A stretch of DNA of 64,000 nt, taken from the NCBI GenBank assembly GCA_012225525.1, contig GCA_012225525.1_3923.1; one strand, written 5' to 3'. Each line of letters starts with the position of its first letter. The first letter of the stretch is position 1. Source of the DNA: a phage. The notes under the pieces were generated by a model, which made no database searches, was not told the DNA's origin, and saw nothing but the letters and a program-made list of their open reading frames with translations. The translations under genes and the position numbers were made by a program. Positions 13,026-15,031 of the stretch are shown one piece after another.

Positions 13026-13118
13026 AATGACCTCAAAGTTATATTAAATTTTGTATTACGTTGAGTATAAAAATAAGCTATAACACCTGACTTGTCAACA
13101 GATTTTATAGCTTATTTG

Positions 13119-13417
13119 GCAGATTTTTTATAAGGCTACTGCCATCCTTCCATACATCACCTTACCTTACCTCACCTGACCTGACCTGACCCTACCTAAC
13201 ATTACCGTGCCACACCTCACTTAAAAACCCTCTTAAAAGACTCTTAAGTGATGTAATCGAATTTTAATGTAGCTCCGATTAACTACCCATACCTTACTCC
13301 GCCTCACCTTACCTAACCGTACCGTACCATACCTGACATAACCGTGCCTTACCTTATTAAAAGACCCTCTTTAAAGACCTTTTAAAAAGGAGCCTCCGAA
13401 GAGGCTACCTAGTCAAC
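13119..13417. repeat. composite intergenic repeat element, copy 1 (hairpin, CA-rich ACCTNACC tract, motif B, hairpin, CA-rich tract, motif A, terminator hairpin)
   Basis: GGCAG...CTGCC hairpin at 13119-13146; CCTTACC/CCTGACC tracts; TTAAAAACCCTCTTAAAAGACTCTTAAGTGATGT; hairpin with loop ATTTTAATGTAGCT; TTATTAAAAGACCCTCTTTAAAGACCTTTTAAAAAGG; near-identical modules at 14525-14821. Confidence 0.75.
13381..13406 (-). terminator. putative intrinsic terminator (minus strand)
   Basis: AGCCTC-cgaa-GAGGCT hairpin with T-run on the minus strand. Confidence 0.45.
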
Positions 13418-13858
13418 TTAGAAAGGTTTTCTGCGTTGCTTGTTAATATTAGCTTTCATAGCAGCTAAGTGATTTTGCTGTTCAATCAGTCGTGAACGTT
13501 CTTGATGACTAAGTGCCATAGTGTTCACATTCTCAATCGCTTGAGTGGCTTGCTTTAAAGCACGACCAATCTTACCAGACATTTTGCGTTTTGCAATAGT
13601 TGCTTGATGCTTAGGTTCAACCACACGATAACCAACACCCATTGAAGCAACCAGATAAATCTTCTCTTCTTTAAGAAGTTTTTCAATAAACTTTTCAAGT
13701 CGGTTTAGACGTGTAAGCGCATAAGCCTTCATTTCATCTTCGTACTTAACAATGTCACCTTGATAAGTTGGCTTCACAATACCTAAGAAGGTGTCCATCT
13801 CAGAATGTGATACAGTGTCACCGTAACTAAACTTTGCTGCTAATGCTTTTGTATTCAT
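13418..13858 (-). CDS. hypothetical protein (repeat-flanked cassette)
   Basis: 146 aa ORF. Confidence 0.45.
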   Translation of the reverse strand: MNTKALAAKFSYGDTVSHSEMDTFLGIVKPTYQGDIVKYEDEMKAYALTRLNRLEKFIEKLLKEEKIYLVASMGVGYRVVEPKHQATIAKRKMSGKIGRALKQATQAIENVNTMALSHQERSRLIEQQNHLAAMKANINKQRRKPF

Positions 13859-13860
13859 AA

Positions 13861-14463
13861 TTAAACGTTACCTTCTGAAATAACTTCTACAGAAAAACGA
13901 CCAAAGCGTGGACGCCAATCACCTACACCACAAAGGTTACCAGCATTTTCAAGAACCATTAGAAGCTCCTCTTTGGTGATTTGCTCTTCATCGAACATCA
14001 ATCCAAACTCTACAGACCAGTCACGGAAGATTGGACGGTAGCTCATAACTCGTGCTGTACCAATCTTAACAGACTTAGCATAGATGAAGTCTGGATTCTT
14101 AGCAAGTTCTTGTGGGTTTGCTGGACAGTTCTTGATAGTCATTGGGAAGACTACATCTGTCAGCATAATGGCTCGGTCAATTACCTTACCAAGTTTGTTG
14201 AGTTTCGCACCAGACTTGATGCAAGCCTCAATCATCTCACCGTTCATAACAAAACCTAGTTGCTCATCGTAGTAACAAGAAGTTACCAGTTGGCTTTCTG
14301 CTAAGAGCGCATAGTCTTCGTCAGTCTTTTTACGTTTACTGGACAGAGACTTGTGATATTTAGTCAGAGGGTTTAATGGGTCTGACAGTGTATCGTTATG
14401 GCTCAGGAAAGGACGAGTACCAGTGATTTTGATATTTAACAGTTTCATAGCATTTAGCTCCAC
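13861..14463 (-). CDS. hypothetical protein (repeat-flanked cassette)
   Basis: 200 aa ORF. Confidence 0.45.
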
Positions 14464-14524
14464 ACTTTAGTTGATTGTTAAGTTGTTTGTAAAGAACCCT
14501 CAACAGAAGACTCTTTAGAAACTT

Positions 14525-14821
14525 GGTAGATTTTTAACGTGGCTACTACCATCCACCCATACCTCACCTCACTTAACCTCACCCTACCACACCAGACATC
14601 ACCTTACCATACAGCACCTTATTAAAAGACCCTCTTAAAGACCTTTTAAAAAGGTAAGTCTCATTTTAATGTAGCTGAGACTAACTACCCGCACTTTACC
14701 GCACCGGACCTTACCGGACCGCACATCACCGCACTAAACCAGACATCACATTACCTGACCACACCAAACCAAACATCACATTACTTAAAAACCCTCTTAG
14801 AAGACTCTTAAGTGATGTTGG
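14525..14821. repeat. composite intergenic repeat element, copy 2 (same modules as copy 1, motif A and B in swapped order)
   Basis: GGTAG...CTACC hairpin; CA-rich tracts; motif A at 14610-14653; AGTCTCA-ttttaatgtagc-TGAGACT hairpin; motif B at 14786-14819. Confidence 0.75.
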
Positions 14822-15031
14822 TGAGTACCCGTTGGTTTATGCTGCTCAGTATACTCACCAAATTTTCTATGTCAACAACTTTTATAAAAAAGTTCTGATA
14901 GCTATATGCGTCACGAAACAAAAGATTGTAAACAAGACACCCATTGCAAAAGATGTGTCCAAAAGCTTACTTGCAACGTATGACAATACAAAGACAACCA
15001 GTATAAACAAAATGACTGTACTGAACATAGT

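Follow-up and report, generated by a model that had tools for sequence, protein, structure and literature searches.

The 64,000-nucleotide (nt) stretch of phage DNA analysed here (GenBank assembly GCA_012225525.1, contig GCA_012225525.1_3923.1; hereafter the window) belongs to a Felix O1-like phage of the genus Felixounavirus. The locus under study and its surroundings (2.5 kb) match 244 phage records, nearly all from myophages of the Felix O1 type, in Felixounavirus or related Ounavirinae, with ASO1B (99 %) and SeKF_63 (96.6 %) as the closest matches. The locus spans positions 13070-14875, with all parts on the minus strand, and comprises a two-gene cassette flanked on both sides by repeat-rich intergenic DNA. 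It is very probably a type II Viral Interference Programmable Repeat (VIPR) system.

VIPR has been described as a phage-borne, CRISPR-like, RNA-guided DNA-binding system, composed of a vipr gene, a vap gene and guide RNAs (vrRNAs) with nine to sixteen YNNGG repeats and an invariant 3' tail of ~40 nt (bioRxiv 10.64898/2026.04.26.720920, 25 June 2026). In the vrRNA code GGY is conserved and NN is hypervariable, and the tail forms a hairpin and a pseudoknot. The Vipr ribonucleoprotein (RNP) binds double-stranded DNA (dsDNA), with NN alone pairing and one target base being skipped, and transcription is repressed. The model system is Escherichia phage SUSP1 (Ounavirinae), with guides that mostly target an E. 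coli satellite. The vrRNAs of ~100 nt, their co-purification with Vipr, dsDNA binding and repression were shown for SUSP1 and P. fulva, while in SUSP1 the downstream vrRNA array is expressed and changing NN without GGY alters target specificity. The accessory protein Vap1 is predicted to bind DNA and enhances protection (bioRxiv 10.64898/2026.04.26.720920).

The repeat units and the two-gene cassette

The cassette consists of vipr (13861..14448, minus strand), coding for a minimal RAMP protein of 195 amino acids (aa), and vap1 (13418..13858, minus strand), which starts 3 nt downstream of vipr and codes for the 146-aa VIPR accessory protein. The vipr reading frame has an ATG at 14448, with an upstream GTG at 14463 also open. 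Both genes are annotated as hypothetical in public records. Intergenic region 2 (14464-14881) lies upstream of vipr and intergenic region 1 (13026-13417) separates vap1 from the next gene. An earlier note on this DNA had placed a two-gene cassette between both repeat regions and named the minus strand as the transcribed one, both correctly. The two composite elements it described are, however, four units, two complete ones per intergenic region, giving a four-unit array arranged 2+2 around vipr-vap1. On the minus (mRNA-sense) strand, each unit opens with motif A or motif B, which is AT-rich, continues with NNGGY pentamers in tandem and closes with a hairpin whose loop is conserved.

Read along the minus strand, the vrRNA1 unit begins with motif A (14782..14814; AT-rich inter-guide element, sense CACTTAAGAGTCTTCTAAGAGGGTTTTTAAGTA), 5' of a tract of nineteen NNGGY pentamers (14688..14783), the 5' half of which is degenerate with several TGT, and ends in a 3' tail (14648..14687) made up of the arm GUAG, the hairpin AGUCUCA/UGAGACU (14657-14682) with CUAC in its loop, and a U-run. 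The vrRNA2 unit combines the first copy of motif B (14617..14654; inter-guide element, sense CCTTTTTAAAAGGTCTTTAAGAGGGTCTTTTAATAAGG) with thirteen pentamers (14556..14621) and a tail (14516..14555) with the arm pairing GUGG/CCAC and the hairpin UGGUAG/CUACCA (14524-14551). On the far side of the cassette, the second copy of motif B (13352..13390) precedes the fourteen pentamers of vrRNA3 (13286..13356), the tail of which (13246..13285) has the arm pairing GUAG/CUAC and the hairpin UAAUCGGA/UUCGAUUA (13254-13281), with a G.U pair on the minus strand. The second copy of motif A (13218..13250) is followed by the fourteen pentamers of vrRNA4 (13149..13219) and a tail (13109..13148) with the arm pairing AAGG/CCUU and the hairpin UGGCAG/CUGCCA (13117-13144). 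These positions bear out the modules listed in the earlier note, namely hairpin 1 (GGCAG..CTGCC, 13119-13144; GGTAG..CTACC, 14525-14550), hairpin 2 (AATCG/CGATT, 13255-13280; AGTCTCA/TGAGACT, 14657-14682) with its shared loop ATTTTAATGTAGCT, of which only two exact copies occur in 64 kb, and motifs A (13218-13250 and 14782-14814) and B (13352-13390 and 14617-14654) in swapped order.

The CA-rich tracts had been read as ACCTNACC-like octamers. Their period is five, with ACC in one fixed 5-nt phase per tract, and Tandem Repeats Finder (TRF) returned periods of 5, 10 and 15; the tracts are thus made of pentamers. For comparison, 29 related loci (GenBank phages and IMG/VR contigs) with 70 distinct units and 882 pentamers were assembled, each unit containing 10-20 pentamers as parsed, with the semi-conserved first and last pentamers counted. 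Tract lengths step by multiples of five in 65/70 units. Across the 882 pentamers, the two N positions hold 0.07 and 0.12 bit (~0.1 bit each) and positions 3-5 hold 1.0-1.7 bits, with G at 78 %, G at 96 % and T at 88 % or C at 10 %, the share of Y amounting to 98.6 %. Tracts cannot be aligned between phages that are ~92 % identical overall, whereas tails and motifs are nearly invariant, motif A being highly conserved between phages; among very close relatives the differences consist of whole pentamers gained or lost. A decaying microsatellite cannot account for a strict 5-nt register in which two positions are free, and the composition of the pentamers indicates that GGY is under selection and NN free or diversifying. 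The sense tracts are G-rich and almost devoid of C, giving a strong strand asymmetry.

A perfect stem of 6-8 base pairs (bp) is present in 17/17 distinct tail variants. These fall into four stem families (UGGCAG/CUGCCA, UGGUAG/CUACCA, AGUCUCA/UGAGACU and UAAUCGGA/UUCGAUUA), and the four hairpins of the window have four different stems, all fully complementary. In every tail, the 4 nt just 5' of the stem are the exact reverse complement of a fixed site in the loop, and this 4-bp pairing, of which three covarying versions exist (AAGG/CCUU, GUGG/CCAC and GUAG/CUAC), is the pseudoknot described in the preprint. The suggestion in the earlier note that the stem differences reflect selection on structure is thereby upheld, the stems being perfect throughout and the pseudoknot covarying. 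One stem contains a G.U pair in the minus-strand reading only, with natural variants changing it to A-U or G-C, which supports an RNA of the minus strand. Taken together, the step lengths (65/70), the information content of the pentamers and the intact stems (17/17) place the regularity of the repeats far beyond chance. A permissive Rfam scan returned no family, only sub-threshold snoRNA noise (E 2.6-5.5; 18-22 bits against gathering thresholds of 50-90), and in whole-unit RNA folding the stability was no better than that of shuffled sequences (z -1.3 to +1.0), as expected for an unstructured, protein-bound tract with a pseudoknot that RNAfold cannot model.

The cassette proteins, which the earlier note had left as of unknown function, are Vipr and Vap1. 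Vipr is 97.9 % identical to the product of the gene that occupies this ligase-flanked position in SUSP1, and Vap1 is 99.3 % identical to SUSP1 Vap1, both values exceeding the 90 % criterion set for the SUSP1 clade in the preprint. With a 50-sequence alignment, AlphaFold2 predicted for Vipr a Cas7-type RAMP (RRM-like) fold with a glycine-rich loop; the alignment was needed, since the single-sequence prediction was useless (predicted local distance difference test score of 45). The modelled protein has the RRM core, glycine-rich loop and thumb of the minimal RAMP protein of type II VIPR, and vap1 is adjacent in a two-gene operon. Pfam returned no family, Cas or RAMP, for either cassette protein, while PHROGs gave only "unknown function", Vap1 corresponding to phrog_5926 (function unknown). 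Applied to SUSP1, the unit parser recovered one upstream and three downstream units, in agreement with the small-RNA sequencing of the preprint. The units of the window have the YNNGG repeats of type II VIPR, with 13-19 pentamers each; the nineteen of vrRNA1 exceed the described maximum of sixteen, its 5' half being degenerate. They likewise have the tail with hairpin and covarying pseudoknot.

Guide matches to an E. coli satellite

The satellite was located via the SUSP1 homologue of a baseplate gene that is named in the preprint. It is a mosaic island of ~11 kb encoding large and small serine recombinases, HNH, tape-measure and baseplate proteins and sometimes a Dam-like methylase, and occupies at least three insertion sites, namely yciI-tonB, lafU-dinB and, close to yecN, a DUF72 gene that is split. 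Satellite-related DNA occurs in 537/5426 complete E. coli genomes (~10 %). Nine variants were used, in our loci L031 (5500-17300), L033 (3400-14300), L032 (1300-12800) and L038-L043; they contain no vipr, no vap and no run of at least 7 NNGGY repeats.

The (NNx)n rule was implemented independently and the guides were scored against the nine satellite variants. A local score replaced the total-match score, which missed core matches, the conserved first and last pentamers not pairing. As a positive control, SUSP1 guides match the satellite at 81-92 % of NN positions. Three of the four window guides also have clear targets. The nine 3' repeats of vrRNA1 match the satellite tape-measure gene at 18/18 NN positions, vrRNA2 matches a 236-aa satellite gene over 21 consecutive NN positions, and vrRNA4 matches a gene of ~108 aa at 23-24/28 NN positions in seven variants. 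The match of vrRNA3 to an intergenic satellite site (22/28 NN positions) is borderline. With a skip of one base the scores are 18 (vrRNA1), 21 (vrRNA2) and 20 (vrRNA4), against at most 14-16 for shuffled guides and 12 or less for every guide when 0, 2 or 3 bases are skipped. Over the 29 loci, 41/70 distinct units match one of the nine satellites at a score of at least 16. In the vrRNA1 and vrRNA2 targets the skipped base falls on the codon wobble position. The satellite variants of strains PAR and GB089 gave no clear match for the window guides, the matches coming from other variants. There was no guide match in the 64-kb window of the phage itself, and thus no sign of self-targeting. A scan of IMG/VR with the vrRNA2 core (18 specified bases) found exact matches in four contigs unrelated to the satellite (L034-L037), three of which encode the same peptide INELVREYD; these matches probably reflect chance or a shared peptide motif.

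Flanking signals and variation among relatives

The genes between ~11 and 21 kb of the window lie on the minus strand, and around the locus their order is the DNA ligase gene (15032-16168), a 48-aa open reading frame (ORF; 14882-15028), intergenic region 2, the 195-aa and 146-aa genes, intergenic region 1, and a 127-aa gene (12642-13025). The 48-aa ORF separates the ligase gene from the VIPR promoter; its product is strongly hydrophobic and probably a small membrane protein, and it carries no annotation in wV8. A strong sigma-70-like promoter (TTGACA-16-TATACT; 11/12 positions; 14848..14875, minus strand) precedes vrRNA1, vrRNA2, vipr and vap1, for which its sequence suggests it would serve, and is kept in Felix O1, wV8, SME50 and SUSP2. 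Its -10 box is overlapped by an inverted repeat, GGTGAGTA..TACTCACC (14820..14859), that is conserved in related phages. At 13381..13406 (minus strand), 3' of vap1, lies a GC-rich hairpin of the intrinsic-terminator type (AGCCUC-UUCG-GAGGCU followed by CCUUUUU), the U-run of which is shared with motif B. vrRNA3 and vrRNA4 are located beyond this hairpin and before a second promoter-like site (TTGACA-17-TATTTT; 13070..13098, minus strand), which belongs to the 127-aa gene, forms the downstream edge of the locus and is annotated as a promoter in the ASO1B record. Its -35 box is enclosed by a 19-nt AT-rich inverted repeat (AAATAAGCTATAACACCTG / CAGATTTTATAGCTTATTT; 13071-13117). This repeat could act as an operator or could terminate transcripts that read through from the vrRNA array. 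For the intergenic DNA, the wV8 record gives only a direct repeat of 58 nt ("DR_4") and the ASO1B record only predicted promoters and terminators; the Felix O1 and wV8 genome papers give direct repeats, but not the vrRNA units.

Elsewhere in the window, ~950 nt at 57400-58350 contain no ORF of at least 50 aa and are dense in short repeats of the CTTAACA/CTAACAAG type, with TRF arrays of periods 22 and 20 at 57560-57706. These repeats form a family distinct from the vrRNA units, and the region may be regulatory, an origin or a genome end.

The earlier note had proposed a search of related phages for further copies and for the presence or absence of the cassette. Unit DNA was found in 231 phage records and vipr is encoded in 118 Ounavirinae records, so that at least 113/231 unit-bearing records lack vipr, and the number of units per locus ranges from one to at least five. 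In Felix O1/FO1a (FO1a, L003 2427-2708) a single unit separates the ligase gene from the next gene, and the cassette is missing there. Salmonella phage SP116 (L044 and L045) has two units in that position, and a tblastn search of its whole genome (87.5 kb) found neither vipr nor vap (E 1.2 or worse); for one SP116 guide, 26/30 NN positions nevertheless agree with the satellite. One or two intact vrRNA-like units also occur in the vipr-less loci L008, L018, L023 and L027. The tails of these orphan units are intact, and GGY is about as frequent in them (0.74) as in the units of vipr-positive phages (0.76). A satellite match was obtained for 4/13 orphan guides, all four from two-unit arrays. The vipr-less architectures fit a loss of the cassette via recombination between homologous tails or motifs, and recombination between units, as a by-product of the repeats and not as their function, probably explains the variation in copy number and in presence or absence. 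That the orphan units are functional, and not relics, is doubtful; if they are functional, Vipr might be borrowed in trans from co-infecting relatives that are VIPR-positive, or the units might serve as decoys that sequester the Vipr of a competitor, in effect an anti-VIPR device. A search of the preprint text for "orphan" and "Felix" found no mention of orphan units, and their occurrence in vipr-less Felix O1-type phages is an observation absent from the preprint. In the IMG/VR Felixounavirus contigs L007, L009 and L011 (~3550-3700), unrelated sequence breaks the downstream vrRNA array just before a truncated motif A, as might result from an insertion or a rearrangement within that array.

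Alternative explanations and comparison with known systems

The anatomy of the locus, the RAMP fold of Vipr, the orthology to SUSP1, the covariation in the tails and the one-nucleotide-skip target matches come from the present analysis, and the mechanism is modelled on SUSP1. The promoter on the 14875 side would drive vrRNA1 and vrRNA2 and then vipr and vap1, with vrRNA3 and vrRNA4 following the terminator. By analogy, the transcripts would be processed to RNAs of ~100 nt and Vipr would bind each vrRNA, probably oligomerising along its repeats, holding the GGY of every pentamer and presenting NN, which alone would pair with DNA. Such a complex would read (NNx)n on either strand of dsDNA, no protospacer-adjacent motif (PAM) having been reported, and once bound may block transcription, an effect that Vap1 would enhance. 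The guides are directed mainly at the ~11-kb E. coli satellite, presumably a parasite of the phage.

Several points weigh against this identification. Expression, processing to ~100 nt, RNP formation, dsDNA binding and repression would be carried over from SUSP1, with vrRNA expression and Vipr binding in the present phage expected because of the 98-99 % protein identity and the conserved tails, and the source paper for VIPR is an unreviewed preprint. No Pfam RAMP model matches Vipr by sequence. The terminator-like hairpin precedes vrRNA3 and vrRNA4 and the route of their transcription is not explained; the downstream array of SUSP1 is, however, expressed. Motifs A and B are left unexplained by the VIPR model and may act as internal promoters, as leaders or as sites of processing. 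Among the targets, the vrRNA1 match is confined to the ten 3' repeats of this guide, the degenerate 5' half of which may lie outside the guide proper, and vrRNA3 scores 14 against a null maximum of 15. Finally, in the vrRNA4 target the skipped base falls on the second codon position in the annotated ORF of ~108 aa (L040 9528-9568; L039 8457-8497), so that either the ORF call is wrong or the wobble alignment is not universal.

The explanations that dispense with a guide function have to be weighed against the same data. The modules could be mobile regulatory or recombination cassettes resembling the PeSL elements of T4-type phages, with gain and loss of the cassette between flanking repeats as their role. 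The distribution of the cassette is compatible with this, as ~118 Ounavirinae records have it and many others retain one or two units without it, the number of units varies from one to five or more, close relatives differ by indels of whole pentamers, and the vipr-less arrays have the layout that deletion between homologous tails or motifs would leave. Not accounted for are the strict NNGGY code with its hypervariable NN, the covarying pseudoknot and the matches of NN strings to the satellite under one skip rule alone, and recombination is best regarded as following from the repeats, not as their function. This explanation is accordingly considered very unlikely. Even less probable is that the tracts bind a ring- or filament-forming RNA-binding regulator in the manner of TRAP and attenuate the neighbouring genes, and do not guide DNA recognition. 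A conserved triplet with a 2-nt spacer is indeed repeated 10-20 times in the 5' leader between the promoter and the first gene, but the spacer dinucleotides carry target information, which a pure binding array does not need, two units are placed after the terminator of the operon, and the fold predicted for the adjacent protein is Cas7-type and not TRAP-type.

The lowest probability, close to negligible, is given to an origin of the tracts at the DNA level or as a by-product of transcription, whether as a Rho rut site on the C-rich, G-poor plus strand, directed against antisense transcripts, or as R-loops or G-quadruplexes at an origin or recombination hot spot. The strand asymmetry, the G-rich sense tracts and the position of the locus among DNA-metabolism genes would agree with such an origin, which, however, predicts neither the 5-nt register with two free positions nor the pseudoknotted tails and satellite matches. 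Moreover, most tracts have only GG runs, and the folding energies are no better than those of shuffled sequences. The G-quadruplex raised in the earlier note is not needed to explain the G-rich strand. Further proposals were an origin or primase hot zone, repeats of the class-switch type, G-quadruplexes in two tiers, antitermination resembling boxA/nut, and sponges based on Shine-Dalgarno (SD)/anti-SD pairing. The PeSL, TRAP, rut, primase, R-loop or class-switch, G-quadruplex, boxA/nut and SD-sponge proposals were all dropped because the NN strings carry target information. Of the roles that the earlier note listed without choosing, a structured RNA and protein binding thus hold in outline and recombination is reduced to a by-product; the 5-nt NNGGY code, in which only NN varies, and the guide role for the RAMP protein of the cassette had escaped it.

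Identification as type II VIPR adds to what is known of Felix O1-like phages, in which the system is common and which serve typing, biocontrol and therapy; the ~118 deposited genomes label the genes as hypothetical and the guides at most as "repeat region" or "terminator". VIPR is a very compact form of RNA-guided DNA recognition, in which a single protein of ~20 kDa and a guide of ~100 nt suffice and the code is non-contiguous; CRISPR effectors have been proposed to descend from it. The present work provides an independent in-silico replication of the one-nucleotide skip rule with guides outside the SUSP1 experiments, and adds target predictions for the present phage and, as a new lead, the orphan arrays. 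It also points to an arms race with a satellite found in ~10 % of complete E. coli genomes, which could affect the host range and yield of therapeutic phages.

The kind of system is already known, having been described in a nearly identical orthologue. The window locus and the type II VIPR of SUSP1 share the gene order (ligase, vrRNA(s), vipr, vap1, vrRNA array), proteins that are 98-99 % identical, the YNNGG code, the tail with hairpin and pseudoknot, the predicted satellite family and the skip of 1 nt. They differ in genus (Felixounavirus here, Suspvirus for SUSP1), in the arrangement of the vrRNAs (2+2 against 1+3) and in all four NN strings, and SUSP1 has been studied by experiment while the window is known from its sequence. 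With the Cas7/Csm3/Cmr4-crRNA complexes of Class 1 CRISPR, the locus has in common the RAMP (RRM-like) fold with a glycine-rich loop and a guide combining a variable part with a structured handle. Class 1 guides have a periodic non-pairing position at every sixth nucleotide, and periodic non-pairing positions along the guide are thus a further shared trait. Here, however, two of every 5 nt specify the target, which is read with a 1-nt gap and no reported PAM, and the system is carried by a lytic phage. The locus is without Cas1/Cas2 adaptation or other cas genes, has no repeat-spacer array and no Cas or RAMP family detectable by Pfam, and is neighboured by a ligase gene and genes for small hypothetical proteins. 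It works like a Cas7-crRNA filament and is not a member of CRISPR-Cas.

Among phage-borne systems, the nearest parallel in purpose is the CRISPR-Cas of phage ICP1, reportedly described by Seed et al. in 2013 as acting against the PLE satellites of Vibrio cholerae. In both cases a lytic phage aims an RNA-guided system at a chromosomal satellite that parasitises it, but that of ICP1 is a complete type I-F system with a nuclease and spacer acquisition, whereas here there is one small RAMP protein with an accessory protein, and the outcome reported for VIPR is repression. The PeSL elements, said to have been presented by Arbiol et al. in 2010 as mobile regulatory cassettes of T4-type phages, likewise consist of repeated intergenic promoter/stem-loop modules that flank optional genes of varying presence in a lytic phage, but are without a pentamer code, RAMP protein or target matches. 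The sites of B. subtilis TRAP, which comprise ~11 (G/U)AG repeats with spacers of 2-3 nt in Bacillus trp leaders, resemble the tracts as repeats of a conserved triplet and short spacer bound by an oligomeric protein. They differ in the triplet, in spacers that carry no information and in the protein fold, and TRAP acts in an attenuator, whereas the vrRNA tracts would act as guides.

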